Virus record (IMG/VR): IMGVR_UViG_3300028833_000149
Span: 1-64,000 of that record
DNA: 64,000 bases
DNA from: an uncultured virus (IMG/VR IMGVR_UViG_3300028833_000149)
Lineage: Duplodnaviria; Heunggongvirae; Uroviricota; Caudoviricetes
Strand: one strand, 5' to 3'
Shown here: one piece after another, positions 209 to 64,000 of the stretch
How positions within the stretch are numbered: position 1 is the stretch's first letter
Layout: each line of letters begins with the position of its first letter
Program-made: the position numbers and the translations under genes
Notes under the pieces: model-generated
What the model saw: only the letters and a program-made list of their open reading frames with translations
Database searches by the model: none
Told to the model about the DNA's origin: nothing

Positions 209-454
209 ATGATAAGTTTAGATTTAGATGTTGATATAAAAACTTTACAAATAATGTTATTAGGCTGGGATTACGATATTGATGAAATAGAAAATATGTC
301 TGCAGAGCAATTATTTGATAAAGTTAAACAAATTCTTGAAGTATATTGTGAAAAAGAAAGTTTAAGACAACAAGAACAAATTTTTATGAGTAATGATAGA
401 AAAACCGTAGATAAATATATTGATTTTTTAAAAAGAAAGAGAGATGATTGTTAA
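209..454 (+). CDS. Hypothetical protein
   Basis: ORF with AGGAGG RBS behind promoter. Confidence 0.7.
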   Translation: MISLDLDVDIKTLQIMLLGWDYDIDEIENMSAEQLFDKVKQILEVYCEKESLRQQEQIFMSNDRKTVDKYIDFLKRKRDDC

Positions 455-1127
455 AATGAGTAATGTATATTTTGTATCAGACACCCATTTTTCCCACAAA
501 AATATATTAAAATATGAACCAATTCGTATTGATTTCGTCGCCAAGTTCATGTCAGAACACGGTAGCAGAAAAACTTTTGACGAAGCTCGTGAGTTTTTAA
601 TAAATTGTATTGAAACAGGAGAAAATATTGAAACCATGCTTTATTGGCATGATGAGGCACTTATCGCCGCTTGGAACTCACAAGTTAAGGACGACGATGT
701 AGTATGGTTCTTAGGTGATTTCGGTTTTAAAGATACAAAGAAGATGCAAGAAATTGGTCGTAGATTAAAAGGTCATAAGCGTATAATTATGGGTAACCAC
801 GATAGAGAAAAGCCTGAATTTTACTACACTTGCGGATTTGAATTTGTTAGTCCATATCCAGTAGTATTAAAGAGACATTTTATTCTATCTCATGCGCCTT
901 TATTTAAAGAACAAGCTGAAGATGGAGTAACAACTAAAGCTTTACCTATGGGACAGTTCTTTAATATTTATGGACACGTTCACAGTCATGGGGATTTTAA
1001 AACCATAGATGAAAATAGTGCATGTGTTTGTGTAGAACGTATCGACTTTACTCCTGTAAAATTACACGTATTCGATAGTTATGTTGAGGGTAGCGCAGGA
1101 AATCCCGCAAAGAATAGACAAAAGTAA
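444..1127 (+). CDS. Calcineurin-like metallophosphoesterase (start may be 456)
   Basis: SDTHF, LGDF, GNHD, SHAP, YGHVH motifs. Confidence 0.88.
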   Translation: MIVKMSNVYFVSDTHFSHKNILKYEPIRIDFVAKFMSEHGSRKTFDEAREFLINCIETGENIETMLYWHDEALIAAWNSQVKDDDVVWFLGDFGFKDTKKMQEIGRRLKGHKRIIMGNHDREKPEFYYTCGFEFVSPYPVVLKRHFILSHAPLFKEQAEDGVTTKALPMGQFFNIYGHVHSHGDFKTIDENSACVCVERIDFTPVKLHVFDSYVEGSAGNPAKNRQK

Positions 1128-1152
1128 AGATACTTTTATTAGTATCTTCTTT

Positions 1153-1229
1153 GGACCCGTAGCTTAATTGGTCAGAGCAGCGGACTCATAACCCGCCGGT
1201 TCTCGGTTCAAGTCCGAGCAGGTCCACCA
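1153..1229 (+). tRNA. tRNA-CAT, Ile2 (lysidine)-like body
   Basis: GGACC.../GGTCC-A-CCA ends, CTCATAA loop, GGTTCAAGTCC; resembles Firmicute tRNA-Ile2. Confidence 0.88.
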
Positions 1230-1255
1230 AAATTTTAAATTGAGAGGAATTAAAT

Positions 1256-1963
1256 ATGTATAAAGGATTATATGATAAGTTTTCAAATTGGTTCAGAGGC
1301 GGCAATATTTGGCTTTATTCAGACCCACATTTTGGCGACGAAGAAATGAAGGAAATCCGCAAGAATTATATTAGTGATGAAGAACAAATTAAGCGTATCA
1401 ATTCAAAAGTAGGAAAGAATGATACAATTATTTTCTTGGGAGATATTGGTAATGTTGAATGCATTAAGAAAATTCGTGGCTATAAAGTATTGATTATGGG
1501 TAATCACGATAAAGGCGCAACTAAATATAAGAGAGTAGTAAAAGAAACTCAAACTTTTAATGCGGCTGAAGTTACGGTTGAAGATTTAGATAAAATTAAA
1601 GAATTAGGTTTTAGTTTTGTAAATCAACCTGATAAAGTTAAGGAATTGGGATTAGATAAGTATTTTCATACAATAATAGAAGATAATCATTTATTTGATG
1701 AGGTATTTGAAGGACCTGAGTTTATTAACGATAAGATCGTTTTATCTCACGAGCCTTTAGATTTATACGCATTCAATATTCATGGACACAAGCACGATTT
1801 GGAATATAAATATGACGATAAGCACTTAAATATATGTGCGGAAGCAATAGATTATACACCAATTAGTTTGCTTTCTCTATTGAAGAATGGTGTAGCAAGT
1901 AAGATTGACGATATTCATAGAATTACTATTGATAAAGCAACAGAGAGAAAGAAAGGAAAATAA
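1256..1963 (+). CDS. Calcineurin-like metallophosphoesterase (second copy)
   Basis: SDPHF, LGDI, GNHD, SHEP, HGHKH motifs. Confidence 0.88.
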   Translation: MYKGLYDKFSNWFRGGNIWLYSDPHFGDEEMKEIRKNYISDEEQIKRINSKVGKNDTIIFLGDIGNVECIKKIRGYKVLIMGNHDKGATKYKRVVKETQTFNAAEVTVEDLDKIKELGFSFVNQPDKVKELGLDKYFHTIIEDNHLFDEVFEGPEFINDKIVLSHEPLDLYAFNIHGHKHDLEYKYDDKHLNICAEAIDYTPISLLSLLKNGVASKIDDIHRITIDKATERKKGK

Positions 1964-1964
1964 T

Positions 1965-2432
1965 ATGGAATCATTAAAGGATTATTTAGAGTATTATTCC
2001 AAGTATGGTATTGAAGAAAAAGAAATTGTTAAACAATTTATTACAGATAAAAATTTGGAACTAGATTATTCAAATATGATTATGGAATTAGTTCAAACAA
2101 GATTGTATAAAGAACAATATAAACAAGCAAAAGCAAAAGAAGTAATATTATACTATAATAGTTGTTGCGGACAAACTCATAACAAAGAATGGACAAATGA
2201 AGAAAATACTTTATGGGATAAATGGGTTATTGAATATGCATTAAATTTTGAATTAAGTGAATCAACAAAAGAGATTATCAAACAAAAAGTGCCGCAAATG
2301 ATCGCTCCAAATTGGGGTTTTAGAGGATTACTTGCATATATAAATAAAGAGTGCGGTGTTCTTTTTAAAGACCAAAAAAGTAAAGATGACTTTGATTTAT
2401 TACAAGTGCCAAAAAGTTTTGGAAATTACTAA
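1965..2432 (+). CDS. Hypothetical protein
   Basis: ORF; ATG at 1965 after AAGGAA RBS. Confidence 0.7.
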   Translation: MESLKDYLEYYSKYGIEEKEIVKQFITDKNLELDYSNMIMELVQTRLYKEQYKQAKAKEVILYYNSCCGQTHNKEWTNEENTLWDKWVIEYALNFELSESTKEIIKQKVPQMIAPNWGFRGLLAYINKECGVLFKDQKSKDDFDLLQVPKSFGNY

Positions 2433-2458
2433 TGGGTGGCAATAATGCTGCCTTAAAT

Positions 2459-2532
2459 ATCGGCTTAGTATAACGGTATTATAGCGGCCTCCAAATCCGA
2501 AGATAGAGTTTCGACTACTCTAGCCGGTGCCA
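2459..2532 (+). tRNA. tRNA-Trp(CCA) with imperfect anticodon stem
   Basis: ATCGGCT/AGCCGGT acceptor, G73, CCA end, anticodon CCA at 2491-2493. Confidence 0.85.
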
Positions 2533-2577
2533 AATGAAATAGTAGAGGAGAAAATATTGTTTTTCTTCTCTTTTTTA

Positions 2578-2606
2578 TTGACAATAAGCAAAAAATATAA
2601 TAAAAT
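2578..2606 (+). promoter_or_regulatory. sigma70-type promoter fused to upstream terminator
   Basis: TTGACA-17-TAAAAT. Confidence 0.75.
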
Positions 2607-2654
2607 ATAATTGTAAAAAAGAAATAGAAAAATAGGAAAGTAGAGGAACAAAAA

Positions 2655-2879
2655 ATGATAGTATATGTATTAACACATTGTGCGGCAGAAGAAAATTATA
2701 CACCAGAAGTTTTTACAGATGTAGAAAAAGCTTATAAGAGATTAAAAAAAGTATATGAAGATTGTATAGAGGATGACGAGTCCGTAGTTTCATGCGATCT
2801 TTATGATACATCAGCGTGTATTGTATATGTAGATGATAGTTATGATAAGTTAGATATTTTTTCAGTTGAGGTAGAATAA
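2655..2879 (+). CDS. Small acidic hypothetical protein
   Basis: ORF with GAGG RBS. Confidence 0.7.
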   Translation: MIVYVLTHCAAEENYTPEVFTDVEKAYKRLKKVYEDCIEDDESVVSCDLYDTSACIVYVDDSYDKLDIFSVEVE

Positions 2880-3151
2880 TGAGTAGTTTAAATTTTGATT
2901 TTGAAAAGAAATTATTAAATTTTATAGAAAAGAATTGTAATTGCAATTTTAAAGTTGAAATTATTAAAGACGCATCCGGAGTGCATATTCAAAATGCAGT
3001 AGATAAAGCCGCAATTTATAAAGAATTAGAAAATATTGACGATATGTTAATAGAAATGAGTGGATATGATAGAGAGACTGAACAAATTGATTTAGAAGAT
3101 AATATCACTTTAGCTTGTGATAATATAAGAGATTTATTGGAAGGAGAATAA
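2879..3151 (+). CDS. Hypothetical protein
   Basis: TAATG-coupled ORF. Confidence 0.7.
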   Translation: MSSLNFDFEKKLLNFIEKNCNCNFKVEIIKDASGVHIQNAVDKAAIYKELENIDDMLIEMSGYDRETEQIDLEDNITLACDNIRDLLEGE

Positions 3152-3153
3152 AA

Positions 3154-3339
3154 ATGTTAATATTCGCATGGATTTTATGGAGTTTATATGTTTTAGGTTT
3201 TACTACTATTTTAGCAATATGGGTTGGAGCAATGTGTGCATTAAATGATAGCAGAGAGGTTCATATAAATATTAACTTACTATCAGTTTTAATGAATATC
3301 GCAGTATTCGTGTTCTTAAGTATATACTTGTTCGCATAA
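3154..3339 (+). CDS. Small membrane protein (2 TM)
   Basis: Two hydrophobic stretches, GGAG RBS. Confidence 0.7.
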   Translation: MLIFAWILWSLYVLGFTTILAIWVGAMCALNDSREVHININLLSVLMNIAVFVFLSIYLFA

Positions 3340-3383
3340 TTATAGATGTAAAGAAGAAAATGTTGATTTTTCTTCTTTTTTTA

Positions 3384-3412
3384 TTGACAAAACGTGAAAT
3401 TTGACTTATAAT
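3384..3412 (+). promoter_or_regulatory. Consensus sigma70 promoter
   Basis: TTGACA-17-TATAAT. Confidence 0.85.
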
Positions 3413-3450
3413 AATAATGTAAATAAAGATAAGGAAAGTAGGTAGTAACT

Positions 3451-3651
3451 ATGAATAATGTGGTTGAATTGAAAGCAAAAGCTTTTGACTTAATTGATAT
3501 TAAAAATGTAGATATTAAATTATTAAAGTGGGCATATCCTAGTGTAGAAGCTTATAATGTTAAGGTAAGAGTAGAAAAAGATTATTGGTGGAGAGAGGAA
3601 TTAACAAAAGAAGAATTTGAATTTCTCGGTAGAATGGTAGGTGCTGAATAA
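3451..3651 (+). CDS. Hypothetical protein, similar to C-terminus of 4535..5005
   Basis: VDI..L....VEAYN...EELTKEEF pattern shared. Confidence 0.7.
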   Translation: MNNVVELKAKAFDLIDIKNVDIKLLKWAYPSVEAYNVKVRVEKDYWWREELTKEEFEFLGRMVGAE

Positions 3652-3860
3652 TGAATAATTTATGGTTTGAATTTTTAGTTGATAAATTCGTAACAGACGA
3701 AACTGATATTCGTTGTTGCGGCTCTTGTCAAGGCGGATGTGTTAATCCTGCAATTTGTGCTTTTATCTGTTGCGGAATTCCAGTTGAAAAGTTTAAAGAA
3801 TATGTTAAAAAAGATATTGATAAATTAAGACAAGAATTTCGTGAGAAGAATGATTTGTAA
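3651..3860 (+). CDS. Small Cys-rich hypothetical protein
   Basis: CCGSCQGGC..C...CC cluster; TAATG coupling. Confidence 0.65.
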   Translation: MNNLWFEFLVDKFVTDETDIRCCGSCQGGCVNPAICAFICCGIPVEKFKEYVKKDIDKLRQEFREKNDL

Positions 3861-3888
3861 TAATATCTAAAGAAAGCTGGTAAAAATT

Positions 3889-4233
3889 ATGAAATATAAA
3901 ATTTATAGAGGATTTGACGATTGGTATGAGTTATATGAAAAATATGAACATGCCGATTTTGATGATAATTTAGAAAGAAAAGCTTTTAGAGAAGAATTTG
4001 AAACAATTAGTATGTCTATGTGGCATCATTATATAAATCTTGCAAGTAATGACATTGAAAAACAACAAGAACTTGCAGAAGCACTAGCTGAGATGTGGTG
4101 TTCTGGTATAGGTTGTGATTCAATAAAAGGTGCTTATGAAGATGCATTGGACTATCTACGCTACGCAAGCGATAGAATGAATATAAATAGATGGATGCGT
4201 ATTCGTATTTTATTAAATTATGATGTTGAATAA
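3889..4233 (+). CDS. Hypothetical protein
   Basis: ORF in operon. Confidence 0.7.
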   Translation: MKYKIYRGFDDWYELYEKYEHADFDDNLERKAFREEFETISMSMWHHYINLASNDIEKQQELAEALAEMWCSGIGCDSIKGAYEDALDYLRYASDRMNINRWMRIRILLNYDVE

Positions 4234-4257
4234 AATATTTAGAAAGGGAATGAAAAG

Positions 4258-4545
4258 ATGCAACTAGAATTATATGGTTTTGAAATAAAAATAAAATCTT
4301 ATTTTACTATCACTATTGATGGTCTTTATTTAACTGGCAATATAACATTTGTTGATATCTTTGATATACCAATGTATTTAACTAAATATATTGTAGACAT
4401 TCCTGATATTTTATTATTTAATGATTATAATGAAGCTTTAAGATGTGAATATGAAATGCTTAAAAGACATTATTTATTAAGAAAAAATTGTAGTGTTAAA
4501 ATTGTTGAAATAAATAAAGCGGAGGTAGTTAGATATGATAGATAA
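4258..4545 (+). CDS. Hypothetical protein
   Basis: ORF in operon. Confidence 0.65.
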   Translation: MQLELYGFEIKIKSYFTITIDGLYLTGNITFVDIFDIPMYLTKYIVDIPDILLFNDYNEALRCEYEMLKRHYLLRKNCSVKIVEINKAEVVRYDR

Positions 4546-5005
4546 AGCGTTAGATAAGTTTAAACAAATAAACCAAATAAATCCTAATGAAGCATTAGAA
4601 TGTCTTAAAAGTATAGAAGAACATTGTAAAAGTGATTATGAATATTGTATTAGTTGTTATGATTATGAAAAAGAGTTGTCTACTATTAAACAAGCATTAA
4701 TTAAAGCACAAGAGTTAAAAAGTGAAAATAATGCTTTACTTGGTGAAAATAATGCTTTACTTGAAGAAAATAATAATTTATATGTTGAATTAACATTTTC
4801 TGATAAGCAGCATAAAGAGTTAATAGAAAACACAAAACAATATAAAAAGATGCTTGAGATTATTAAAGAAAAAGATGTTGATATTTATATTTTACAAAAA
4901 TGCAAAACAGTTGATGAATATAACTCTAAAATTGTTCATATTGTTGGAGAAACTAGAGAACTTGCCGAAGAAGAATTCAAATTATTAAAGGAATGGTTAA
5001 AATAA
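4535..5005 (+). CDS. Coiled-coil hypothetical protein
   Basis: GGAGG RBS; ENNALL heptad repeats. Confidence 0.7.
   Translation: MIDKALDKFKQINQINPNEALECLKSIEEHCKSDYEYCISCYDYEKELSTIKQALIKAQELKSENNALLGENNALLEENNNLYVELTFSDKQHKELIENTKQYKKMLEIIKEKDVDIYILQKCKTVDEYNSKIVHIVGETRELAEEEFKLLKEWLK
4722..4775 (+). repeat. 21-nt tandem repeat (about 2.5 copies) encoding heptads
   Basis: gtgaaaataatgctttacttg repeated. Confidence 0.75.
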
Positions 5006-5067
5006 TGAAAAAATTAACAAAACTAACTAAATAAGATACTTGGGAATTATTTGATAGATGGATTTTT

Positions 5068-5295
5068 ATGGACATATCACATTTTACAGGCGACGTTGAA
5101 GATAATTGTCTAACTGATGATGATGGCTATGGTCATTATATTTATGCCGATAATTGTAATCTATATGTTAATAAAGAAGAGTGCGCGGACTTACATAAAT
5201 TAGCTAATTATGGTTTTCATAGATTAGAAGAATTTATTGAACTAATGTCAAATGAAAAATATTATCTTATAGGTGTATTTTGGTATAATAAATAA
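5068..5295 (+). CDS. Hypothetical protein; probably originally began at 5005 (in-frame TAA at 5032)
   Basis: ORF; upstream in-frame coupled ATG. Confidence 0.55.
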   Translation: MDISHFTGDVEDNCLTDDDGYGHYIYADNCNLYVNKEECADLHKLANYGFHRLEEFIELMSNEKYYLIGVFWYNK

Positions 5296-5298
5296 GGA

Positions 5299-5661
5299 GT
5301 GAATAATATGATAAAATTAAATGTAAAAGGTCATAATGATATGTGTGGTGGATATTCATATTCTGGACAAGTGTCATTTGATGGAAAAACTGTTAAAGAA
5401 GTATTAGACGAAATTAGAGAATATGCAAAAGATCAAGATGCAAAATATCTAGGAGATGGTTTTGGCAATCCTGAAAGTGGAGGTTGTGATGCTTGGTGTA
5501 TTAAAATAGATGATGTAGTTTATTGGAATGGTTGGGTGCCACAATCTTGGGTAAAATATGGTGTTTACGACCATAGTTTAGATAATCTTATTGTAAAAGA
5601 TGTTCGAGTACACGGTGGTTGGTATTGTTTTTATGATTTTGAAATAATTACAAATAAATAG
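5299..5661 (+). CDS. Hypothetical protein (start may be 5308)
   Basis: AAGGAG RBS, open frame. Confidence 0.7.
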   Translation: MNNMIKLNVKGHNDMCGGYSYSGQVSFDGKTVKEVLDEIREYAKDQDAKYLGDGFGNPESGGCDAWCIKIDDVVYWNGWVPQSWVKYGVYDHSLDNLIVKDVRVHGGWYCFYDFEIITNK

Positions 5662-5689
5662 TAAAATGCAATTAATTAGTTTATTCTAC

Positions 5690-5718
5690 TTGACAGAACG
5701 TAAAAAATGTAATATAAT
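5690..5718 (+). promoter_or_regulatory. Consensus sigma70 promoter
   Basis: TTGACA-17-TATAAT. Confidence 0.85.
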
Positions 5719-5741
5719 ATTTGTAATAGGAGTGGTGTAAT

Positions 5742-6770
5742 ATGAAAAAACTGCAAATTTTAATTCCACATTACAAAGAAGATTTTAGTATAATCAAGCC
5801 TTTATTGGATTCTATAAATATTCAACAGAATATTAATTTTGATGATATTGGAGTTATTATTGTAAATGATGGTAATGAGGTTATTATAGATAAAAATAAT
5901 TTTAATAATTATAATTATGAAATACAATATTATATAAATGAACATAAAGGTGTGTCCGCAACAAGAAACGCTTGTTTAGATAAAGCAGAAGCAGAATATG
6001 TTATGTTCTGTGATTGTGATGATATGTTCTCTAATATTTGTGGATTATGGTGTATATTTAGAGAAATGAATACTAAAAATTCTAATGAAGAAAATGTAGG
6101 TTTCGATGTATTAGTTTCAGTATTTATGCAAGAAAGCCATGACCCTAAAACTAATACAATAACTTACATAAATCGCGGCGACAAAGATAAAGATGGTTTG
6201 GATTCTGTATTTGTTCATGGCAAAGCTTATCGTAGACAATATTTATTAGACAACAATATAAGATGGTGTGAAAAATTAACAATTCACGAAGATAGTTATT
6301 TTAACTGTCTTTGCCAAACTCTAACTAAAAATATTAAGTATATTTCTACTCCATTTTATCTGTGGAAATGGCGTGGTGAATCTGTTTGTAGAAGTGATGA
6401 GAAGTATATATTAAAAACCTATACTAATTTATTAGATAGTTCAGATGCATTAGTAGAACAATTTATATTAAGAAAGAAGCTAGAAAATGCTCAATATAAT
6501 ATTACTCATATGATATACAACACTTATTTTACAATGAATACTGACGAGTGGTTAGCGGCAGAAAATAGACCTTATAGATTAAAAACTGAAAGACATTTTA
6601 AATATTACTATAATAAGTATAGTTATCTTATGAATGGAATAAAACCTGAAGTTAAAATGCAAATAATTAAAACTTTAAAAACAAACTTTTTTAATAAAGG
6701 GTTAGTTATTGAAAAATTTTCATTTGAAGATTGGATTAGATATATACAAGGATTAAAAGATGAGCAATAG
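5742..6770 (+). CDS. Glycosyltransferase family 2 (GT-A fold)
   Basis: ILIPHY, IVNDG, GVSATRN, FCDCDD (DxD), HED motifs. Confidence 0.88.
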   Translation: MKKLQILIPHYKEDFSIIKPLLDSINIQQNINFDDIGVIIVNDGNEVIIDKNNFNNYNYEIQYYINEHKGVSATRNACLDKAEAEYVMFCDCDDMFSNICGLWCIFREMNTKNSNEENVGFDVLVSVFMQESHDPKTNTITYINRGDKDKDGLDSVFVHGKAYRRQYLLDNNIRWCEKLTIHEDSYFNCLCQTLTKNIKYISTPFYLWKWRGESVCRSDEKYILKTYTNLLDSSDALVEQFILRKKLENAQYNITHMIYNTYFTMNTDEWLAAENRPYRLKTERHFKYYYNKYSYLMNGIKPEVKMQIIKTLKTNFFNKGLVIEKFSFEDWIRYIQGLKDEQ

Positions 6771-6787
6771 ATAAAAGGAGCATTAAA

Positions 6788-6988
6788 ATGACAACAAAAG
6801 AAATATTAACAGCAATAGCGATTTTAATGGAAGAAAATTTTAATGAATATTTTGAAGATTATGATGCACAAGTTCGTCATATAGTATTAGACAATCATAA
6901 ATATGATGTTTTTTCTGACGATTTAAGACTTTTTAGTGAATTACAAAATAAGCTTGAAGAATTAGATAATATAAAAATGAACAAATAA
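6788..6988 (+). CDS. Hypothetical protein
   Basis: AAGGAG RBS. Confidence 0.65.
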   Translation: MTTKEILTAIAILMEENFNEYFEDYDAQVRHIVLDNHKYDVFSDDLRLFSELQNKLEELDNIKMNK

Positions 6989-7000
6989 TTACATAAAATA

Positions 7001-7029
7001 TTGACAAAGCTCATAAAATGTAATATAAT
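7001..7029 (+). promoter_or_regulatory. Consensus sigma70 promoter
   Basis: TTGACA-17-TATAAT. Confidence 0.85.
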
Positions 7030-7052
7030 ATATTTGTAGAAAGAGTGATAAA

Positions 7053-7292
7053 ATGTTTGTAAAATTAAAACCAATAGATAAAAATATGGAAAAGAAAATA
7101 ATAAAAAATGGCGGCGTTTTAGTAGAAGATAATTGCTACATTTTTTTAGTTGATGATAATGAAGTAATGCCGCTATTAGAGAGACTTCTTTCTATTGATG
7201 AAAATTTAGAGAAATATAATTATTGTAAAGAACCACTTTTTAGTTATTATTATGATTATAATACTCAACATTTTATCATTAAATATGAATAA
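7053..7292 (+). CDS. Hypothetical protein
   Basis: ORF behind promoter. Confidence 0.65.
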   Translation: MFVKLKPIDKNMEKKIIKNGGVLVEDNCYIFLVDDNEVMPLLERLLSIDENLEKYNYCKEPLFSYYYDYNTQHFIIKYE

Positions 7293-7306
7293 AAAGAGGT
7301 GAGATA

Positions 7307-7570
7307 ATGAGACAATTACAAGTTGTAGTTCCTAGTGCCGCAGAAGCTGAAAGAGTTAAATTTACTGCGCATTTAGTATCTATTGCATCTCGTTATGTCA
7401 GTGAAATGTATATTACAAGCGAAAGAACTAGCATTGATTTAAAATCAATAATGGGTATGATGACTATTGTTATAAACTCTGGAAAGACTTTTGATATTGA
7501 AATTACTGGAATTGATGAAGACGATGCGGCAAAAGCTATTACAGATTACTTTATTGAAGGGAGAATGTAA
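7307..7570 (+). CDS. HPr/Crh-like phosphocarrier homologue lacking the His15 motif
   Basis: 87 aa; DLKSIMGMM (Ser46 motif), ASRY.SE, G.DEDDA; no GLHARP. Confidence 0.8.
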   Translation: MRQLQVVVPSAAEAERVKFTAHLVSIASRYVSEMYITSERTSIDLKSIMGMMTIVINSGKTFDIEITGIDEDDAAKAITDYFIEGRM

Positions 7571-7572
7571 TA

Positions 7573-7824
7573 ATGAGTGAACAAGAAAAGCAAAGAAGAC
7601 TAAAATTGGAAAATAAAATGTATATACTAAAAATAGTAGACTTAGTAATTTACATATCTATTACAATTATGCTATGTTTAAGTCTAATTTTTGATTGGTC
7701 TATGTGTAGATATATTACATGCATAATCTTCTGTTTAACTATAATTAGTGATTTAGTTGTAGAAAATTTAATATATAAAGAATATTTATACTCAAAGATA
7801 GAAGATGGTTTGAATGAAAAATAG
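7573..7824 (+). CDS. Small membrane protein (2 TM)
   Basis: Hydrophobic segments. Confidence 0.65.
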   Translation: MSEQEKQRRLKLENKMYILKIVDLVIYISITIMLCLSLIFDWSMCRYITCIIFCLTIISDLVVENLIYKEYLYSKIEDGLNEK

Positions 7825-7981
7825 GAAACTTTTTAATAAAAGAGTATCTAAAAGACATGTAAATCAAATTTCTAAGAATAGAACTTATGAAAATAGATTG
7901 CCTATTTTTTGGTATATATTATTTGCTATTGGAGTATTTGTGGCAATATTTATATTTATAGGCTATTGCACTACAAAATAG
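7814..7981 (+). CDS. 55-aa basic peptide with C-terminal TM helix
   Basis: Read from sequence; overlaps previous stop. Confidence 0.5.
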   Translation: MKNRKLFNKRVSKRHVNQISKNRTYENRLPIFWYILFAIGVFVAIFIFIGYCTTK

Positions 7982-7995
7982 TGAGGAGTGATAAA

Positions 7996-8088
7996 ATGTT
8001 TTTAGATTTAACAATATCTTCTGCTATAAGTACTGCTTTAATTTTTACTTTTTTAATAGCAAGTTTAATTTCTTTTGTGAAAAAGTAA
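7996..8088 (+). CDS. 30-aa single-TM peptide
   Basis: GAGGAG RBS, hydrophobic, ends KK. Confidence 0.55.
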   Translation: MFLDLTISSAISTALIFTFLIASLISFVKK

Positions 8089-8090: not shown

Positions 8091-8119
8091 TTGACAATTA
8101 GTTAGAAAAATGCTATACT
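8091..8119 (+). promoter_or_regulatory. sigma70 promoter with extended -10 driving ncRNA
   Basis: TTGACA-17-TATACT preceded by TG. Confidence 0.85.
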
Positions 8120-8125
8120 AATAAT

Positions 8126-8280
8126 GCAGTGATAGAGTGATTTGTGAGTCGTGGTAGACTTAAGCAACTTAGGCTCGCGGGAGACCATCGAAAGTCGGGG
8201 GAGACTACTGATGCGTTAACAGCTAAGGCGCAGGGGTGTAACGCTGCTGCTATGTTTCGTCCTCAAGCAGACGACACTGT
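8126..8280 (+). ncRNA. Unidentified structured ncRNA (~155 nt, ~170 with terminator)
   Basis: GC-rich island between promoter and terminator; closing helix GCAGTG/CACTGT and several internal hairpins; no ORF. Confidence 0.7.
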
Positions 8281-8305
8281 AGGGACTTTGTCCCTTTATT
8301 TTTTT
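8281..8305 (+). terminator. Intrinsic terminator
   Basis: AGGGAC-TTT-GTCCCT then T-run. Confidence 0.75.
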
Positions 8306-13278: not shown

Positions 13279-13307
13279 TTGACAAAAGCGGAAAAAATTT
13301 TTATAAT
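13279..13307 (+). promoter_or_regulatory. Consensus sigma70 promoter
   Basis: TTGACA-17-TATAAT. Confidence 0.85.
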
Positions 13308-51161: not shown

Positions 51162-51172
51162 TTGAGGTTTTT
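51149..51172. terminator. Bidirectional terminator
   Basis: AAAAACCTC-TTAATT-GAGGTTTTT. Confidence 0.75.
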
Positions 51173-52187
51173 ATTTTTGTGTTAATTTATTAACTAAACT
51201 AATTAATTGATTAATTTGTTCTTGTTGATTATCAATAATTGCTTGTTGCTCTTGAATAGCCTTCCAAGCAATATATACAAGCTTTGATTCTTTTACTGAC
51301 ATATAATCACCATTTTCGCCGCTTGCTTGTTGATTTGCAACTAAACTAAAAGTTCCTGCATTAACTTTTAATGCTTCTTGCGCAATAAGACCGATTGAGT
51401 CAGTATTATCTGATTTATATTTAAAATTATAAACTGGAAGTGATTTAATAATATCTAATGCGGAAAAATTTGACTTACCTATATCAGTTTTTGCTCGTCT
51501 ATCTGAAGTTGCATTAAAATATGTTGCTTCAATATAACTATCTGAATGAATATAATTTTGAACAAATAAATATCCATTATTTGCACCTGAACTTGATTTT
51601 CTAATTACTGCATAGTTTTGAATATATAATGGAATATTAAATAATCCTTTAGTATATGATATATCAGCTGATGGTGAATAGGTTCCTCCACTATCACTGA
51701 AAGCGGCTATTGAAAAACCATAATAATTAGTATTATTAGTTAATGCAAAACATATTGGATTATTTTGAAAATAGCTTTGAGAATAGTCTACAGTAGGAGT
51801 AGTAAGCAATATCTTAGTTCCTGAAACTCCTTCAAAAAATAATTGTGTATTATTTATTGATAGTGTTGCCTTACTGCTATCTGTTCCACCTTTAAGATAA
51901 ATACCATTATTATTATGACCAATCTCGCCTTTATATGCACCAATTGTATTATTACTATTTACATTAAAAATTAAAGTACTTAATATGTGAAAATCGTTAT
52001 TTAATCTACCATTAGATGCATTTGTTGTAATAATATTACCAAAATCAGTAGTACTTTGATTACTTTCTTTAATTATTGTAGGAGTAATCATATTACCAGC
52101 AGTAGGATCGTCTATTTGTTCAAAATCTATTTTAAAAGATGTTGCTCGACTTGTTAATCCTTTAATATGTTTATAAAAATATGCCAT
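51171..52187 (-). CDS. Tail fibre/spike with C-terminal intramolecular chaperone (peptidase S74)
   Basis: ATSDRRAK.DI, GLIAQE, C-terminal coiled coil. Confidence 0.85.
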   Translation of the reverse strand: MAYFYKHIKGLTSRATSFKIDFEQIDDPTAGNMITPTIIKESNQSTTDFGNIITTNASNGRLNNDFHILSTLIFNVNSNNTIGAYKGEIGHNNNGIYLKGGTDSSKATLSINNTQLFFEGVSGTKILLTTPTVDYSQSYFQNNPICFALTNNTNYYGFSIAAFSDSGGTYSPSADISYTKGLFNIPLYIQNYAVIRKSSSGANNGYLFVQNYIHSDSYIEATYFNATSDRRAKTDIGKSNFSALDIIKSLPVYNFKYKSDNTDSIGLIAQEALKVNAGTFSLVANQQASGENGDYMSVKESKLVYIAWKAIQEQQAIIDNQQEQINQLISLVNKLTQK

Positions 52188-52251
52188 TTTTATCACCCGT
52201 TTTAATTATAATATTTATTGGAGGAGAAATCAAATTCTCCTCCTTTTATTT

Positions 52252-55200: not shown

Positions 55201-57573
55201 AAAACATATATTTAAGAAATCTTCTTTTTTTATAAAGCATACTTCACGTAAATAATTTATATCTTTATTATAATTATCTTCTGAACCGGTTTTTTCTAAA
55301 ATATCTTGATAACAATATACATTTATATCTTTATAATTGTTTTCAGTTAGTAAATGACTATCTTTATTAAAAATTGTATGTTGAGTATTGTTATAATATA
55401 GTTGAATATTATTATAATCCTTTACTCGATGTTCTTCATCGAAAATGAAGAAATTGCTATAATTATTTACAAAATCACTAGATAACATAGCATATTTGTC
55501 TTCTCTAAATGGCTCAAAATAATAGAAATTCTTTCTGTCATTACCTGAATCATTTTTAATATCAATAACAACGTGATAGTAATTATTATATAGCGGATCT
55601 AATGGAGTTTCAAAGTATTTTCTAAAATTATATAAATTTTTTAAACATCTTTGTCTTGCATCTAAATATTTTCTCATATAATCTGAAGTTGTTCCATATA
55701 AATCCATAAAAGTAGATGATAGATAAGAACCTTTTATATCTGTTTGAGATGCGTCTGTGGCGCCGCTAATATTAGATTGAAGTAAATTCCATCTTTGAAG
55801 TAAATTATCCTTATCATAAGATTCAGCTTTTCCTTTTTTCTTATAAATGTCTTCTATGCTTGATACTTCAGCTCCAACCATATCTATATTATTAGTCATT
55901 TCCGCTATATATTTTGTTTGTGAATGTAATCTACTATAATAATTCTCTGCATTTAGTAATATATCAGAATTAATTTTTCTTAAATCATTATAAATTCTAT
56001 TATTAATATCTTTTTCTTGAATCTTAGATAATAACCCTGCATTAATAAAATAGTTAAAATCAATCAATTTATTCTCTAATCAAGGAAGTTGATCCGCGAT
56101 TCGTGCAAATTGTATATCTTCATCAGAATATTCTACTTTAAAGAATATAGAAATATCGTAATCTTTCAAATCACTATAATCAGCAAAATCATTTTCATTT
56201 TTTACTGATATAATAATATTTGAACCACTTATTTCCATAGAAAAATTAGAATTATCTGGTGTTATAATTTTTAAATCACCAAAAATAGTACTAAATTGAA
56301 TTTGACTAACAGTGTTTTGTGTTTTAAAAACTTGTAAAGGATATAGTTTAAATAAGTTAATTTCTTCATTAGATAATGTATATGAAGTAAATTTTATACC
56401 AATAATTCTATTGTTTTTTCTTATTAATGTAAAAGTTCCATTTGGTTTGGTTAATCTATACTGTGGTCCGTATAATATGTTTGTATACATTCCAGTATAA
56501 TATTTACTAAATTTTCTTCAATAAGTGCTATCAAAATAAGTTATGAAAAAAGGACTTACTTTTGGTAAAGCAGTTATTACTTCATCAGAACTTAATGTCC
56601 TACTATTTATATTTAAAACAGTTACTAATGAATCGGCTTGTTGAGATAAACTAAAAGTTTTTATATTTCTAAAAGGAGAATATTGTAATCCATTTACCAT
56701 ATCTTTTTTAGAAGGTTCAAATCAGAAATATGTTACTAATGTAATAAAATTACTCATATTTTCTGGTTCAAGTAATACAGTAGCAGTATTTAGTACCATA
56801 CCTATTTGTTCGCCTAATGATATTAATGCGCCATTTGCAGTTGTTGATGAACAACTAAAAGGTATAGTTTCATATAAATCTGCATTTTTCATAGTATTTG
56901 AATAACTATTTTTTAATGTTTTTACTATTTTTTTATTTGAACTTTTTCTTGCAGTTGTATTTATTACAGTTCCATCATCACACAAATATAGAGGAACTTC
57001 TAATTTTAAGTATTTATATGATATTTTACACTCATTAACAATCTTTTCTGTCCAATTGTCAATATTTAATGCACCAATAAAATCTTTTGAATTTATATCA
57101 TTATTTATTGTATATCCATCACTTTGTTTTGCTAATTGATAAGAGAAACTATCTTGACAAGTAAAATTATAAACAATGTTATTTTCAGTTATTGTATATG
57201 TGACACTTTTTACTGAAAATAATATTTTATTATTATAACTATATTCAAGTAATAATTGACTACCAATTTTAATTTTAGATGCGAAAGGATTATCTTTTCA
57301 AGTATCATCATCTAAAATCATCTTATCAAGAGAAAAAGTTAAATCTTTTTGAGCTTGTTGGTGGATATTTAATTTTTCATTATAAGTATAAGTTTTTGTA
57401 TATATATTAGTTAAATTATCTTTTAAATTTTTTGTGTTATTTTCTTTTTCATATTGTAATAAGTCTTGATTAACATTATTACTATAAAATTCAGATATAA
57501 CATTCTTAATATACTTATTAAGATTATCTTGGTCATATGCTTTTGTTAATAAGCTTAATTTAAAATATGCCAT
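52252..57573 (-). CDS. 1773-aa tail/baseplate protein (code 4)
   Basis: Seven track ORFs lie in one frame; gaps checked free of TAA/TAG; about 16 TGA; position after TMP/Dit. Confidence 0.82.
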
Positions 57574-57584
57574 AAAACCACCTT

Positions 57585-59279
57585 CTAACTAAATATTATT
57601 TCAAAATTTTCTTCTATTGTTGGTGTACTTTCATCTCTATTTCAATTAAGACGAACTTGAAATTCACTTTCTTGTGCAGGTCTTTGATATGTAATAACAT
57701 CTGCAATTAAATCTTCATATGAATTATCATCAGAATCTTTGAATACTGATTGAGTAACAATTGATGAATTTCCTTGCCAACGTTGATAACGAGGATTGTT
57801 TGGTTCGTTTTGCGGAACAAATGTGTCATCATTTTGTTTAACTTGTAGGTTAATATTATTATAATCAAAAATTGTTCCAGACTCAAAAGCGTCATTTCTA
57901 TATCTTATTTTATAATCATAACCACTATTTTGTGAATGATAATAATATCTAGGAGCCATAACCGCAATTTGTATTGCATATGATAAACCAAAATCTAATT
58001 CATCACAAGGAACACAATTGTAAATAATTACAGGGTCTCCATCCTTATCAAATCCTCCTATAAAATTCCAATTATAATATTGAGCAAGTGCGGATTCAAA
58101 TATCATAAAATGAGATACAGAAGGAATCGAATTTCTATCTAACTGATATTGAATATATCTATCAAAATAATTAATATTATCTTCTTCGTCTATTCAAACT
58201 GAACGTCCATAAAATGCTGATTGATTTTTCCAATATTTAAAATATCAAATATCACTTTTTCTATTTAATACATATTGGTCTGTATTATATGAATAATAAA
58301 TGTTTTCTCCATCTGTTCATACATATGCGCCATTAAAATTTGTTAAACCATTTCAAGTTTTTTTAGACCAAGTTGAAGTTGATTTGTCTAATACATATTG
58401 AGTAAGACCATTTGAATAATAAATATTATCTCCGTCTCTTCAAATTGCTCCACCACTAAAATTTGTTAATCCACTTCAAGTCTTATTTGTTCAGTATGGT
58501 TCTGGTTCTTCATCATCATTTACAATTAAGACTTTGTGTTTACTTGAAAGAGAATAATATATATTTTCACCATCTGTTCATATATCTGTACCATAAAAAC
58601 TAGTATCATCTAATCCAGTTCAAGTTTTTTCCTTTCAAGTTAAATCTACTGGATCTAATTTATATTGATAAGTACCACTTGAATAATAGGTGTCTTTACC
58701 ATCTGTCCATATATTATATCCTTGTCCTTGTAAAGTACCGCCGCCTTCTACAGCTCATTCTTTAACTATTCATTTGCTTGTTGTTTTATCGAACATATAA
58801 CTATTTCTACCATTTAAATAATAAGTATTATTGTCATAAGTTCAAATACAAGAGCCGTTACTAATAGGTAAATCAATTGTATCTCTTATAAATCATCTAG
58901 ATTCTAAATCATAAGCATCTTTTTTATAAATTGATGCACCTATATTCAAAGTCTCACTGTAATCTGCACCATATTGATATACATGAGTTGTTCTATTTTT
59001 AAAACCTCATCTAAAAAATAACTTATAAATATCAATAGCATCATTTTCATTTTCATTAATTATGCTATCTTCTGTAATAACTGTATCATCTTTCTTAATA
59101 AAAGTATAAGTATTATCGTTATTCTCATTATATCCCAATAGTCTTCATTCAGGATTATAATAATGTAAATATTCATATAATGAATCAATACTATTTTCTA
59201 AAGACAAAATATATTCTTTGTGAATTGCTTGTCTTTGTTGACTTAGAGGCCTTTGAACTGTAATATTAAAAAATTTCAT
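57585..59279 (-). CDS. 564-aa tail-module protein with Trp-rich beta-propeller-like repeats (code 4)
   Basis: About 6 repeats of W..KTW.GL..F.G..IWTDG.NIYYS. Confidence 0.8.
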
Positions 59280-60004
59280 TATCTCACCCTCATAACAATA
59301 TCACTAAAAATAGGTTCGCTCGTATTAAAATATTCAATTTTAACTACAATTTCATCTTCAACATCATCATAAGTCCATTTTCAATTAGCATAAAATTCTT
59401 CATACCCTGATTCTGATTTAATATAAAATTTAATTAATGGTTTTAATATTGATATTCCATCAATTTTCACACTTGAAAAACGCTTTATAAGATATGTTGG
59501 ATTTTGTTCTGGACTTGGTGTAAAACTACTAATAGGTTCATCTAATAGATAAGCAGATTGTGATGTATCTATTTTTATAACACTCTCTATCGAACCTTCC
59601 TCAGGAGTGCTATTATATGTATAACTTAATTTTAATTGGTCATTGTCAGTATCATAAGTAATTGTTGGTTGATAAATACCTTTATTTTCAGCAGGTATAT
59701 ATAATAAATTGCCATCTAATTGCTTATAAATTACATCTCCACGATAATATGTATCTTTACCATTAGTAATAGAATTTGCATTAACAATAGCGGATTCACC
59801 TATATTTAATAATGCTAATTTTGAAGTAATATCACTATCACTTAATAATACTTGTGTAACATTGTATATATCTCAGAAGGAAACTTGTCTAGTAACATTT
59901 TCTAATTTATCATATAATTTATTTAAAGCTTCTTTAATATCGTCAATTTCTTCAAATTTTTGTGTATTATAAAATTGAGTTTCTGTATGTTGTAAATTAC
60001 TCAT
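59279..60004 (-). CDS. Tail-module hypothetical protein (code 4)
   Basis: GAGGTG RBS, open frame, TAATG-coupled. Confidence 0.7.
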
Positions 60005-60014
60005 ATAATCACCT

Positions 60015-61154
60015 CTACACTAAAATAGCTTTTGCTCTACCATATGATACTGCTTTTATTTTACTATCTTCTGATAATGGAGACAACTTATAAAACTCTC
60101 AATATAAATATATATCTCCAACTTCTTCATTCTTATTTACTTTCATCTTAGTAGTTTTCATATCATTAACCATTAAATCTCCATAGGTATTAGTTAATAA
60201 TAAATTTAATACTTTATAATCTGAATCTCCATATTGTAAAAATACCAATCCTGAAGTCGAATCATACTTAATTGAAATAGTTCTATCTAATTGATTAAAA
60301 GAAGTTGGTTCGCCATTTATTTGTTCTGTATCTTGCCAATTTTCAGTTTGCGGCATAAAATCTACTTCACATAATAAATCACAGTATTTTGTAACTTTAT
60401 TTGCAGTTTCAGTATCTACTATTTCATTAACATCTGGTCCTATGTATAAACGTAATGATGGATAAGCATTAGTACTGGTATCTCCAGTAAAATAGAAAGA
60501 CACTTCACTAACTATTCCAAAAGATAATTCTGAAAATGGTAATAAATCACTTGGTAATAAGCCACTAGAATTTTTTGGTAATCCAAGAATATAATAAGTA
60601 TTAACGTTACCATCAGTAATATAAGTATCTGTTTGAGTTCATACATATTGTCTTTGAGCTAATGCACATTGTTCTCCTTGAATTTCAAAAGTAATTGTAT
60701 TTTCAGCCATATATAAATCTTTACCATTATCAACACCAATTACGGTTTTTACGGCTTCTTTCATACCAGTAGTCTTTGCTAAATAACATAAATTATTATC
60801 ATAAGCAAAAGAAAGATAATCAATTTCATACGGACCTAGTGCCGCAATTAAACTACGATATTCTTCTGCGGTAACTCCATAAGTACAAATAGTAAAACTT
60901 ACTTGCATTCTACTGAATTTTACGCCTGTTAAATTACCCATTGCGTGATCATATTGTGGTGAACTGTACTCATTAGAGAAGGAAGGCCCATTAACAAACT
61001 TAAGGGCACTTCCGTTATTTGTAATAAATGTATGATATGTATCTCACATATCTTCACCACGCCAATAAAATTTAGCATATTTATCAAGTCTACGACCAAG
61101 ATATTCTTGTTGCTTTTTTATTGTATTAACTTGTGAATAACTTTTTGTACTCAT
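60015..61154 (-). CDS. Distal tail (Dit)-like protein (code 4)
   Basis: Directly after tape measure; joins track ORFs via TGA. Confidence 0.7.
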
Positions 61155-61165
61155 TATAACACCTC

Positions 61166-64000
61166 TTATGCAGATACATTTATACCACTTTGAATTATTG
61201 CGGCGATAATTGCATCTTTCAAATTACGTCCTTGCATTTCATTTCCACTTAATTGAATTACTTGGTCACCAATATTTAATGTTAAATTTCCACCTGTATC
61301 ATTAACGCTAATTTGACTTGAATCAATATTAGATACTTGACTACCAAAAGTAGCAAAGAAATTATTTAAGTCTAATTGCGCTTCATTCGCTGTTTTTGCT
61401 AAGAAACTGTCTGAAGTTAAGAAACTTGCTAATAATTCTTCACTTTCAGTTCCTCTTAATAAATTTAATAATTCTCTGTTATTTGCTAAAAGCTCATCGA
61501 ATTTCTCACTAATCTCTGAAATTGAATCTTCAATATTTTGAATAACTGCTTCTTGTGCACGTTCACGTAAAGTATTTAATCTTTCTTTTTCTAATTCAGC
61601 AAAAGAATTTGTAAGTTCTTCTATTTGTGCTTTTGAAGACATACTTGTAGAACCAGCAAGTTTAGTTAAATTAGATACGAATAATTCTGCTTTTTCTTCA
61701 TACTCTTCATCTTCTTGAGCTTGATTAATTGATTCAAAATATTTTTGATAAGCATCTTTTCTTTCTTCAAGAGATTTAGTTAAAGCATCTTGTTCTTCTT
61801 TAAGAAGTTCCTTATACGCTTCAATACGCTTATTTTCTTGTTCAACTAAAGTTTCTAAATCTACACTGAAGAAATCCTTACTTTCTAACTCTCTCATTTG
61901 TTGCTCTAAATATGTGACTAATGCCGCATTATATTCAGAGCCTTTTCTTGCCCTTTCAACTTCTCATTCTGCTCTCAATTCGTCAAGTTGTCTTTTTCTA
62001 TTTTCTTGTAAAGTTTTATTTGAAGCAAGAGCTTGTTCAATTTGTTGATAATCTTGTGAGTTAAAAGCAGCTAATAATCTTTCTCCATCTTTACCTGAGA
62101 ATAACTCTCCATGCTCACTTAAGAATGTTGTCTTATCAGTCTCTGTCATAGTAGACCATTTTGATGCTGTTTCATAGAAACTTTTTACTGAATTTGTTAA
62201 TTTATCTACATTTTGTCCTATATTTTGAATACCAACTTGAATTGTATTACCAATTTGATTTAAAATTACATTATATGCTTCATCATAATCTTCCAATCCA
62301 GATAATATTCCACCAAAAGATTCTTTCATTGCCATAGTAATGTTGCCATTATTTGCTGCAAGAGATTTAAAGAATGTGTCTGATATTATATTTTTATATT
62401 GTTCTTCAGATAATACTTCTTCAAGTTGTCCACTCACGCCTTGTTCTTTTAAGGTACGTAAAATTGATTGATATCCAGTATATAAATCATTTATTTCTTC
62501 ATTAGTAATATTTAATTTGTCAATTAAATCTAATGCAGAAGCTCCCATTTGTTCAAATACATTAAACTCTTTAAATGCAGTAGAAATTGCTTTAAATTCC
62601 TCTGAAAATTCTCCTAAAGAATCTTTTAACATAACAAATGCTTCTGTTCTCTCTTTTAAAGATAAACTTTCATCTTGAAGGATATCCGCGGCAACACTTC
62701 CATTTATTTTTATAGAAGCAATTTCTTTTAATATATCTCTTATTTTAGTTGAATCTTTTAAAAATTCTTTTAACGTCTCATCTGAAACTGATTCAATGAT
62801 TTTTTCCATCATTGTTCGTCTTGAAGTTTTTTCAACACTTGTTAAAGACGTGTCTTCATCTAAATAAGAATATAATGATTGTTTTGCTATAGTACGAGCA
62901 CTTAATCTATAAGAAGCATTTTCTTTTCAATCGTTAGAATTTGTCCTTAAAAGTACACCAGATAATTTTTCTCTATCTTCTCTTAATTTTTCATCTAATA
63001 ATGTTTGATAATATTTTAAATATTCTTGTTTCTCACTATCATTTAAACCTTCATAATAGTCTTTTTCTGACATTGATAAAGAAGTATCAAGATTTTCTTC
63101 TTTAACTGAAGATAAATTATCTGCAACTTCTTTTAAACTATCAGAAAGTTTTTGTGCGTCATCACTAGTTTTTATTAATTTATTATCTAAGTCTTCAATA
63201 CTACTAACTGCAGTTTTAATACTTTCTGCTCTTTTAGTTAAATTATAAATTTCAGCATTAATTTCATTCATTTCATCTTCTGCTGATTCACTACTACCTG
63301 CTATCGATGCAGCTATTGCAACACCAATTAATGAAGCAAGTATTGCAGCACCAACTACTCATCCCGCAGCCATAGTAGCACTACCTGCCATTTTTCAAGC
63401 AGTTTTTGCTCTTTCTAATCCAACAGATTTTTGTAATTCAGCATTTTCTTTCTTAGTATATATAATTGCAGCATTAATAGCTCTTGCAATTAATTTTCAA
63501 AGACCTCATACAGCTAAAATTGGAGCAGCTAAACCAAGAACAGTAGATTTTAAATTATCTACTAAATGTTCTTGACTTTCTAATAATGATAATTGTTCTC
63601 CATATGATTCAGAAACTGCTTGAGTTTGTTCATACTTTAATTGTTCTGCTTTGTAATTGTTAAGTTGTTGCTCTTGTATTAATATCTCTTTATCTAATTC
63701 TTCAGTAGATTCTTTATTTTCTAATGCTTGAAGTCTTTGTTTTTTTAATTCTATTAAATAATCTTCTGTTTGTGTAATAAGTCCCTTACGTTTTTCGTAA
63801 TTTTCTTTTTGAGACATAATATAAGCATCTGCTTGTATCTTTTTTCTTTTTAATTCTATTTTAGCTTCTTGTTGTGTATACTGTAATTGTAACTTTGCTA
63901 TTTTTGCTTGTCTCATTTTATTGCCTAACATAGTCACAGCCACACCAGCAAGCACAACTGCAAGTGATACTAAAACCCATTCCTGACTAAGAATTTGATT
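61166..64000 (-). CDS. Tape measure protein, C-terminal part (5' end outside window; code 4)
   Basis: Four track ORFs in one frame separated by TGA; long coiled coil with hydrophobic Ala/Gly segments. Confidence 0.82.

Follow-up and report, generated by a model that had tools for sequence, protein, structure and literature searches.

Does a phage that reads TGA as tryptophan also use this codon to time its own gene expression? The question is raised by a 64-kb stretch of DNA (hereafter the window; IMG/VR record IMGVR_UViG_3300028833_000149, positions 1 to 64,000), which is the first 64 kb of a virus contig of 73,004 bp (G000; 29% GC, terminal repeat not found). A preliminary description had proposed that in-frame TGA is absent from the early genes and the replication core, and that structural and lysis proteins are completed late, once a phage tRNA(UCA) accumulates in a host that uses the standard code. 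We consider it likely that the window belongs to a phage using code 4 (TGA read as tryptophan) in a standard-code host possessing release factor 2 (RF2), that it keeps TGA out of its early and replisome genes, and that its other genes are completed only once the phage tRNA(UCA) out-competes RF2.

Partition of TGA along the contig

Gene functions were assigned from PHROG and Pfam scans, and 11 short or antisense open reading frames (ORFs), several of which had TGA and look spurious, were removed before counting. The block counts cover the whole 73-kb contig with 79 genes retained, and the 121 in-frame TGA codons are spread over 28 of these (blocks are listed in Table 1). TGA accounts for 0 of 81 Trp codons in the early and replisome blocks, compared with 121 of 222 in the remainder (Fisher p=1.8e-22). 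The proposed absence of TGA from 209-8088 and 31398-47561 is thus upheld, and the partition withstands an exact test of TGA against TGG by block. The individual counts given earlier were also accurate. The DnaE gene (43545-47561) has 0 TGA and 25 TGG, NrdD has 0 and 8, the gene at 19803-22280 has 17 and 2, and the gene at 52252-57573, for which about 16 TGA had been stated, has 16 and 6. The statement that both lysis genes carry TGA is verifiable only in part: the holin-family gene and its membrane-protein neighbour have 2 TGA each, and no endolysin was identified.

The argument that drift should favour TGA everywhere is borne out by codon usage, as A-ending codons dominate the TGA-free blocks too. 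Their share among the Lys, Glu, Gln, Leu (TTR) and Arg (AGR) pairs is 71-97% in these blocks and 81-95% elsewhere. Gene GC does not correlate with TGA fraction (Spearman rho=-0.11, p=0.34), and the correlation with GC at third codon positions is weak (rho=-0.22, p=0.049). Out-of-frame TGA trinucleotides occur at 25-29 per kb in the TGA-free blocks and at 22-24 per kb elsewhere. Local GC was rejected as the cause of the partition, since the A-ending bias is similar in both gene sets and TGA fraction is uncorrelated with gene GC.

The recoded genes are not confined to the structural and lysis class that had been proposed. They also include PhoH, a GIY-YIG endonuclease, two exonucleases, RNase H, NrdG, pyruvate formate-lyase, a radical-SAM protein and RuvC, and some virion-module genes have zero TGA.

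TGA is read as tryptophan

The coding density of the gene calls is 0.943 under code 4, compared with 0.769 under code 11 and 0.785 under code 15, where TAG is read through. All four TGA sites that could be aligned to PDB homologues lie opposite W (three in pyruvate formate-lyase and one in RNase H); for NrdG, the PDB search gave no match. Further alignments were made to orthologues in two related phages, G002 and G003, where 63 of 112 TGA sites lie opposite a Trp codon (35 TGG, 28 TGA). The remaining aligned sites are mainly opposite Tyr (10), Phe (9), Leu (7) and Ile (6), with only 2 opposite Gly. TGG sites behave comparably in the same orthologues, with 128 of 175 opposite Trp. Judging from these alignments, TGA is a tryptophan codon and the phage uses code 4. 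Two other readings were rejected. Code 25 (TGA=Gly) is contradicted by the 2 of 112 sites opposite Gly and by the PDB-aligned sites, and selenocysteine by the alignment of TGA sites with W and by a tRNA body with 7/5 rather than selenocysteine-type stems.

Among 54 genes without in-frame TGA, the terminal codon is TAA in 40, TAG in 14 and TGA in none. By their codons, the early and replisome genes are readable under both codes. The base following the codon also differs: T follows in-frame TGA in 23 of 154 cases and TGG in 60 of 217 (four-base chi-square p=0.016). UGA-U is a strong RF2 context, and the depletion of T after TGA hints at avoidance of that context.

Conservation in related phages

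A second IMG/VR record of 79,069 bp (G001) is 99.996% identical to G000 over 24088-73004 and extends 30 kb beyond it, which brings the readable phage sequence to about 103 kb. CheckV estimates completeness at 66% for G000 and 71% for G001. The best explanation is a tailed phage of gut or rumen type with an estimated genome of roughly 110-130 kb, of which the window makes up about 60%. The relatives G002 (130,018 bp, rated complete, 33-35 tRNA genes) and G003 (42.8 kb) have DnaE at 59-62% amino acid identity, and G000 shares 48 reciprocal best-hit pairs with G002 and 21 with G003. Among cultured phages, SPbeta-like Bacillus phages and Enterococcus phages come closest by DnaE (35-37% amino acid identity); a megablast search of the replisome block against cultured phages gave no match.

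The replisome block is syntenic in G000, G002 and G003 at 40-67% amino acid identity and is TGA-free in all three apart from one codon. Its homologues in G002 (13 genes) have TGA at 0 of 50 Trp codons and those in G003 at 1 of 48, the single TGA lying in the RecJ-like gene. Five further genomes of 107-136 kb were reached via their tRNA(UCA), and their replisome best-hit homologues (7-10 genes each, 29-67% amino acid identity) give 0/46, 0/38, 0/49, 0/48 and 0/37. In these five genomes coding density rises by 0.06-0.15 under code 4, and TGA makes up 16-39% of Trp codons genome-wide. Pooled over the seven relatives, whose DnaE identity to the window is 35-62%, 1 of 316 replisome Trp codons is TGA; with the window phage included, the eight genomes give 1 of 361. 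The contrast begins directly after DnaE, where the radical-SAM-like gene carries 5, 8 and 7 TGA in G000, G002 and G003, respectively.

The comparison of sequences points to the partition being an old, maintained trait of the lineage and to selection as its cause. As it is conserved across relatives, drift, local composition and recent acquisition are ruled out for the two main blocks.

The phage tRNA(UCA)

ARAGORN reports tRNA-Met twice on the contig, a tRNA-Trp(CCA) at 2459-2532 and a 98-nt 'tRNA-Phe(aaa)' at 14051-14148. The last label is overturned by the Rfam alignment, in which the anticodon loop reads CUUCAAA and the anticodon is UCA; the tRNA(UCA) that had been claimed is thus present. 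Its body resembles tRNA-Trp, with A1:U72, G5:C68, discriminator G73 and 7/5 stems. A1:U72, G5:C68 and G73 are identity elements for tryptophanyl-tRNA synthetase (TrpRS). An exact 20-nt search of IMG/VR with the anticodon arm of this tRNA gave no match. A syntenic homologue, labelled 'SeC' by ARAGORN, adjoins the orthologous GIY-YIG gene in G002, and the hairpin and T-run 5' of the tRNA are arranged in the same way in a closer relative (L136). A 14-nt motif found upstream of the tRNA in both G000 and G002 was considered as a repeated promoter and rejected, as it is not enriched (30 matches, 21.9±4.8 expected).

Release-factor and TrpRS genes were searched for in G000-G003, including the complete G002, and none was found. 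Therefore, host TrpRS would have to charge the tRNA(UCA), and host RF2, if present, is unreplaced.

Two side observations concern the tRNAs. The GIY-YIG homing-endonuclease gene (2 TGA) is a conserved upstream neighbour of the tRNA(UCA), as seen in the window (13645-14148), in G002 (88371-89025) and in L136. In the early-block tRNA-Trp(CCA), no more than 3 pairs of the anticodon stem are Watson-Crick, and both ends of the stem are mismatched.

Promoters and transcription layout

Allowing at most one mismatch, the sequence TTGACA-17-TATAAT has 18 matches in the contig, compared with 3.1 in shuffles (maximum 7). Fourteen of these are plus-strand and intergenic, with a common downstream TGTAA. 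Several TGA-bearing units lie behind such consensus promoters: 8091 precedes a 577-aa protein (9 TGA), 10326 PhoH, 13279 the GIY-YIG gene and tRNA(UCA), and 15930 an exonuclease and RNase H. No intergenic sigma-70 consensus match was found in the minus-strand module, and the minus-strand matches in G000 (5251, 40500, 55613) each have one mismatch and all lie inside ORFs. The stretch 47564-51161 has no consensus promoter. At 66-79 kb of G001 (65.9-79 kb), a dense series of TTGACA-17-TATAAT promoters precedes small plus-strand genes, and from its sequence this part looks like more of the early region.

A separate feature is found at the edge of the TGA-free early block, where 8125-8305 (+) forms the strongest GC-rich island of the contig, with GC reaching 56% compared with 29% for the contig as a whole. 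With a near-consensus promoter (8091-8119) on one side and an intrinsic terminator (8281-8305) on the other, the island is a candidate for a small RNA of ~175 nt. The candidate has no Rfam family, no relative in G001-G003 and no exact 20-mer in IMG/VR, and its fold z-score is only -1.5.

A proposed translational delay and its alternatives

In the proposed mechanism, the immediate-early and replisome genes would be translated by the unmodified host apparatus, as they lack TGA and no gene has it as its stop. All other genes would gain TGA through the strong G-to-A pressure of the genome. They would be completed only when the tRNA-Trp-like(UCA), presumably charged by host TrpRS, out-competes RF2. 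The partition would then act as a translational timer whose delay is set by accumulation of the tRNA and which separates 'immediate plus replisome' genes from 'everything else'. Compared with the late-gene switch first proposed, the partition, the Trp meaning, the tRNA(UCA) and the conservation stand, whereas the recoded set is wider than the late genes and the tRNA lies in a sigma-70-type unit. An accumulation delay is likelier than a strict late-gene gate because both the tRNA gene and many TGA-bearing genes are found in sigma-70-consensus units.

The host is most likely a standard-code, RF2-bearing Firmicute of the Clostridia; we infer its code mainly from the partition itself. The best bacterial matches of the pyruvate formate-lyase are Clostridia metagenome-assembled genomes (MAGs), at up to 77% amino acid identity. 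RF2 is found in 5 of 5 of the best-matching MAGs, in four of them with a score over the curated cut-off and in the fifth truncated at contig ends. As a separate observation, 58262-58605, in the repeat region of the 564-aa protein with 17 TGA, has DNA matches of 69-81% in contigs of two Clostridia-order genomes (G361, G134). These matches may reflect a prophage or a shared repeat domain and are a weak host lead.

Several observations weigh against this interpretation. The link to Clostridia is through one auxiliary gene, the pyruvate formate-lyase. A search for CRISPR- or prophage-type DNA used 20 kb of the ~103 kb phage against 401 genomes of one order, the order to which the best formate-lyase match belongs. 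It returned nothing resembling a spacer; the strongest short hits, 24-31 nt with E ~1e-3 to 1e-4, are at chance level, and two homologous gene fragments were also matched. The tRNA(UCA) gene starts about 770 nt 3' of the perfect promoter at 13279, and from this position the tRNA may be made early, from the start of infection. The D and variable regions of the tRNA are A-U-rich, the minimum free energy z-score is +0.24, and its suppressor role is a predicted one. About 10-25 kb of the genome lies outside the sampled sequence and may hold other tRNAs. Among plus-strand genes beyond the early and replisome blocks, 17 of 30 carry TGA, and many of these are enzymes and not late proteins. On the minus strand, 10 of 31 module genes, including the capsid-like gene, are without TGA. 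Three adjacent minus-strand genes of no assigned function at G001 58373-62918 (L118:18373-19989, L119:8-2918) have 0 TGA at 18 Trp codons, for which P ~2e-7 given that TGA makes up 57% (85/148) of Trp codons in the module. An orthologue of this run was not found in G002, and it is possibly a recent insert or a set of early-expressed genes.

The alternative that survives best concerns efficiency and not timing. Competition with RF2 would keep UGA decoding imperfect throughout infection, and selection would purge TGA from the genes of products needed accurately or in abundance, such as the replisome, ligase, NrdD and capsid, and tolerate it in others, with no temporal switch. We regard this as rather improbable, though the data would also fit a cost of UGA decoding and nothing else; efficiency and timing are not exclusive. 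The TGA share of the module is well under the A-ending share of comparable codons (81-95%), the capsid-like gene has 0 TGA in both the window phage and G002, and ligase and NrdD have 0/19 although they lie inside the mixed block, all of which would fit imperfect decoding. However, the longest virion-module proteins hold 16-17 TGA each, and their full length requires near-complete read-through. In addition, the small early genes are all TGA-free (0/36) and have no obvious abundance.

A host that itself uses code 4 and lacks RF2, with some other cause for the TGA-free blocks, is very unlikely. The 401-genome search did not pin down the host, and 29% GC is also typical of code-4 lineages. Such a host gives no reason for 0/81 Trp codons, or 1/316 in relatives, under a 71-97% A-ending bias, and a phage tRNA(UCA) would be needless in it. 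The closest bacterial gene matches in RF2-bearing Clostridia and the depletion of T after TGA also speak against it. Least probable of all is a mosaic origin, in which the TGA-free blocks were recently taken from a standard-code phage and are too young to have gained TGA: phage genomes are mosaic and the three-gene 0/18 run without a G002 orthologue may be a recent insert, but the replisome block is syntenic and TGA-free not only in the three genomes compared above (bar the one codon in G003) but in five more (29-67%), and its other codons are already at the A-ending bias of the genome.

A family of long-arm tRNA-Trp-like(UCA) genes

IMG/VR was scanned with a pattern that joins the anticodon arm of the window tRNA to its T-arm across a long gap, which gave 72 loci (spanning IMG/VR L130-L201) and 55 distinct cores. 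Part of these loci are ordinary selenocysteine-like tRNAs. The same arm motifs with a short variable loop occur at only 16 loci. The 26 distinct sequences with a Trp-type 7/5 body and G73 were aligned together with the G002 copy (L124:8929-9025) and the window copy (28 sequences, alignment A1). The acceptor helix is 100% paired, the column pair 1-95 is A-U in 24 of 27 rows and the discriminator is G; 7 + 5 acceptor/T pairs fit 28 of 28 sequences. The variable region forms a fifth helix, in which 6 of 6 pairs change on both sides and 87% of cells are paired. In its loop, U, C, C, A and the second A after CCA are each at least 90% conserved. The typical arm has 5 bp and a loop of CUCCAAA or GUCCAAA, the sequence of the tRNA-Trp anticodon loop, and its fold agrees with this. 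Of 55 distinct long-arm UCA cores, 37 have TCCA in the variable region, compared with 6 of 71 distinct long-arm cores with a CCA anticodon from a similar scan (Fisher p=2.5e-12), and the U-CCA-A loop motif is absent from the true selenocysteine-like tRNAs of the same scan. Several relatives have an ordinary tRNA-Trp(CCA) at a distance of 4-5 nt from the tRNA(UCA). ARAGORN labels the long-arm tRNA(UCA) as Phe, SeC or '???'.

We tentatively suggest an undescribed class of phage tRNA with a Trp body, a UCA anticodon and an extra arm of 4-7 bp whose 7-nt loop N-U-CCA-A-A copies the anticodon loop of tRNA-Trp. The arm might show the CCA identity triplet, absent from the actual anticodon, to host TrpRS or another anticodon-reading factor, in which case UGA could be read as Trp without a phage synthetase. 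This reading, with the idea that the arm supplies CCA to TrpRS, is our own; it is possible, though less likely than not. The window copy is an exception to the motif, which is present in its close relative L136. Its variable region is a degenerate 25-nt insert with a 3-bp stem, from which the CCA motif is absent. The absence of the motif here argues against the arm being indispensable; it may be dispensable once established, or the copy may be decaying. A description of such a variable arm was not found in the literature searched, which omitted most subscription journals.

Many phage tRNAs with a CCA anticodon (IMG/VR L256-L365) are also long-armed, some of them with class-II-like D-arms. The loops of these arms resemble short tetraloops and are not anticodon mimics.

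Comparison with known systems

Bacterial tRNA-Trp and its opal-suppressor derivatives share with the phage tRNA the 7/5 cloverleaf, A1:U72, G5:C68, G73 and an anticodon loop of the form CU-NCA-AA. The phage tRNA differs in having U34 for C34 and a variable arm of 25-31 nt, compared with the short class I loop of 4-5 nt. Selenocysteine tRNA and the allo-tRNAs, as portrayed by Mukai et al. (PMC5389517), are alike in their UCA anticodon and long variable arm, and ARAGORN labels relatives of the window tRNA 'SeC'. Their stems are 8/5, 8/4 or 9/3, whereas those of the phage tRNA are 7/5. The 13-bp acceptor/T domain of selenocysteine tRNA (8/5 in bacteria) is found in none of the 28 phage sequences, and TGA in these phages stands at conserved Trp positions, more than 120 times per genome.

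The interpretation given here is in essence the model already put forward by Borges et al. (bioRxiv 10.1101/2021.08.26.457843), which is itself a hypothesis in print. In that text, the same switch is proposed for TGA-recoded 'Agate' phages of ~127 kb, whose replication machinery is in standard code and whose structural, lysis and homing-endonuclease genes gain TGA. A TGA suppressor is stated to be detectable in only 35% of code-4 genomes, and non-canonical tRNAs are suspected. The window phage resembles the Agate phages, as described there, in TGA=Trp, in size class (~127-130 kb; G002 is 130,018 bp), in standard-code replication genes, in recoded structural, lysis and homing-endonuclease genes, in a suppressor tRNA, in the purging of TGA stops and in predicted standard-code Firmicute or Bacteroidete hosts. 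This likeness is one of published size, code and layout; placement in the Agate clade itself goes by large-terminase phylogeny (at least 95% bootstrap). The window phage differs from that account in that many enzyme genes behind sigma-70-consensus promoters are recoded too, and in the long variable-arm insert of its tRNA(UCA), which is absent from that text. The crAss-like and Lak phages cited in the same preprint (10.1101/2021.08.26.457843), with TAG or TGA reassigned in late genes, are alike in that the reassigned stop is used block-wise, that the early genes keep the standard code and that the phage has its own suppressor tRNA. They are unlike the window phage in belonging to other lineages with Bacteroidetes hosts and in mostly reading TAG as Gln.

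Gene content of the blocks

The features of the contig are collected in Table 1; the minus-strand lysis and virion module starts at 49.3 kb. Pfam searches on 34 unannotated proteins gave a family for 4, with endolysin not among them, and a protein atlas search with a TGA-free 538-aa protein gave weak leads only (<0.8). The pyruvate formate-lyase is split and permuted on the plus strand. The upstream piece of 77 aa (27635-27868) matches positions 682-760 of the family profile, the C-terminal glycyl-radical end, and the 675-aa body (27880-29907; 3 TGA) covers profile positions 11-680.

Table 1. Blocks, genes, tRNAs and promoters of the phage contig, with Trp codon counts (aa, amino acids; bracketed numbers give TGA codons per gene, or TGA out of all Trp codons).
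Feature	Position	Strand	Genes; TGA/TGG	Content or basis
Early block	209-8088	+	19 genes; 0/36	small genes of no assigned function, phosphoesterases
Sigma-70-type promoters, early block	152, 2578, 3384, 5690, 7001	+		consensus or near-consensus
tRNA-Trp(CCA)	2459-2532	+		early block; ARAGORN
Mixed block	8319-31244	+	27 genes, 14 with TGA; 52/65	
Mixed block, TGA-bearing genes	8319-31244	+		PhoH (2), GIY-YIG endonuclease (2), exonuclease (2), RNase H (1), NrdG (2), pyruvate formate-lyase body (3)
Mixed block, TGA-free genes	8319-31244	+		helicase, ligase (0/11), NrdD (0/8), kinase, ThyX-like
Sigma-70-type promoters, mixed block	8091, 10326, 13279, 15930, 22337	+		consensus match
Promoter of GIY-YIG and tRNA(UCA) unit	13279-13307	+		perfect TTGACA-17-TATAAT
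Hairpin with T-run	14020-14050	+		7-bp stem; abuts 5' end of tRNA(UCA); read from sequence
Predicted suppressor tRNA, anticodon UCA	14051-14148	+		Rfam alignment, 59.5 bits
846-aa protein of no assigned function	19803-22280	+	17 TGA	mixed block
Replisome block	31398-47561	+	12 genes; 0/45	two topoisomerase II/gyrase-like subunits, Sak4-like, DnaB-like helicase, primase, RecJ-like exonuclease, DnaE-type polymerase
Sigma-70-type promoters, replisome block	31329, 33357, 36004, 43489	+		consensus match
Post-DnaE stretch	47564-51161	both	5 genes; 16/8	
Post-DnaE genes	within 47564-51161			radical-SAM-like (5), exonuclease (5), RuvC-like (2)
Holin-family gene	49312-49683	-	2/2	
Membrane protein with C-terminal transmembrane segment	49699-50154	-	2/1	
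Virion module	51171-64000, on to ~89 kb via G001	-		tail fibre, tape measure (7), very large proteins
Virion module within G000	51171-72590	-	16 genes; 53/28	
1773-aa protein	52252-57573	-	16 TGA	virion module
564-aa repeat protein	57585-59279	-	17 TGA	virion module
Genes past the window	G000/G001	-		capsid-like (0), portal (3), terminase-like (5)

Implications

With a single TGA among 361 replisome Trp codons under a strong A-ending bias, selection is hard to dispute. The breadth of the recoded set, together with the position of the tRNA in a sigma-70-type unit, favours a delay timer over a gate for late genes only. The mislabelling of long-arm tRNA(UCA) genes offers a concrete reason why suppressors escape detection in many code-4 phages. 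If the variable arm truly mimics the anticodon loop, tRNAs would have an identity device of a new kind, which could also prove a useful part for genetic-code engineering.

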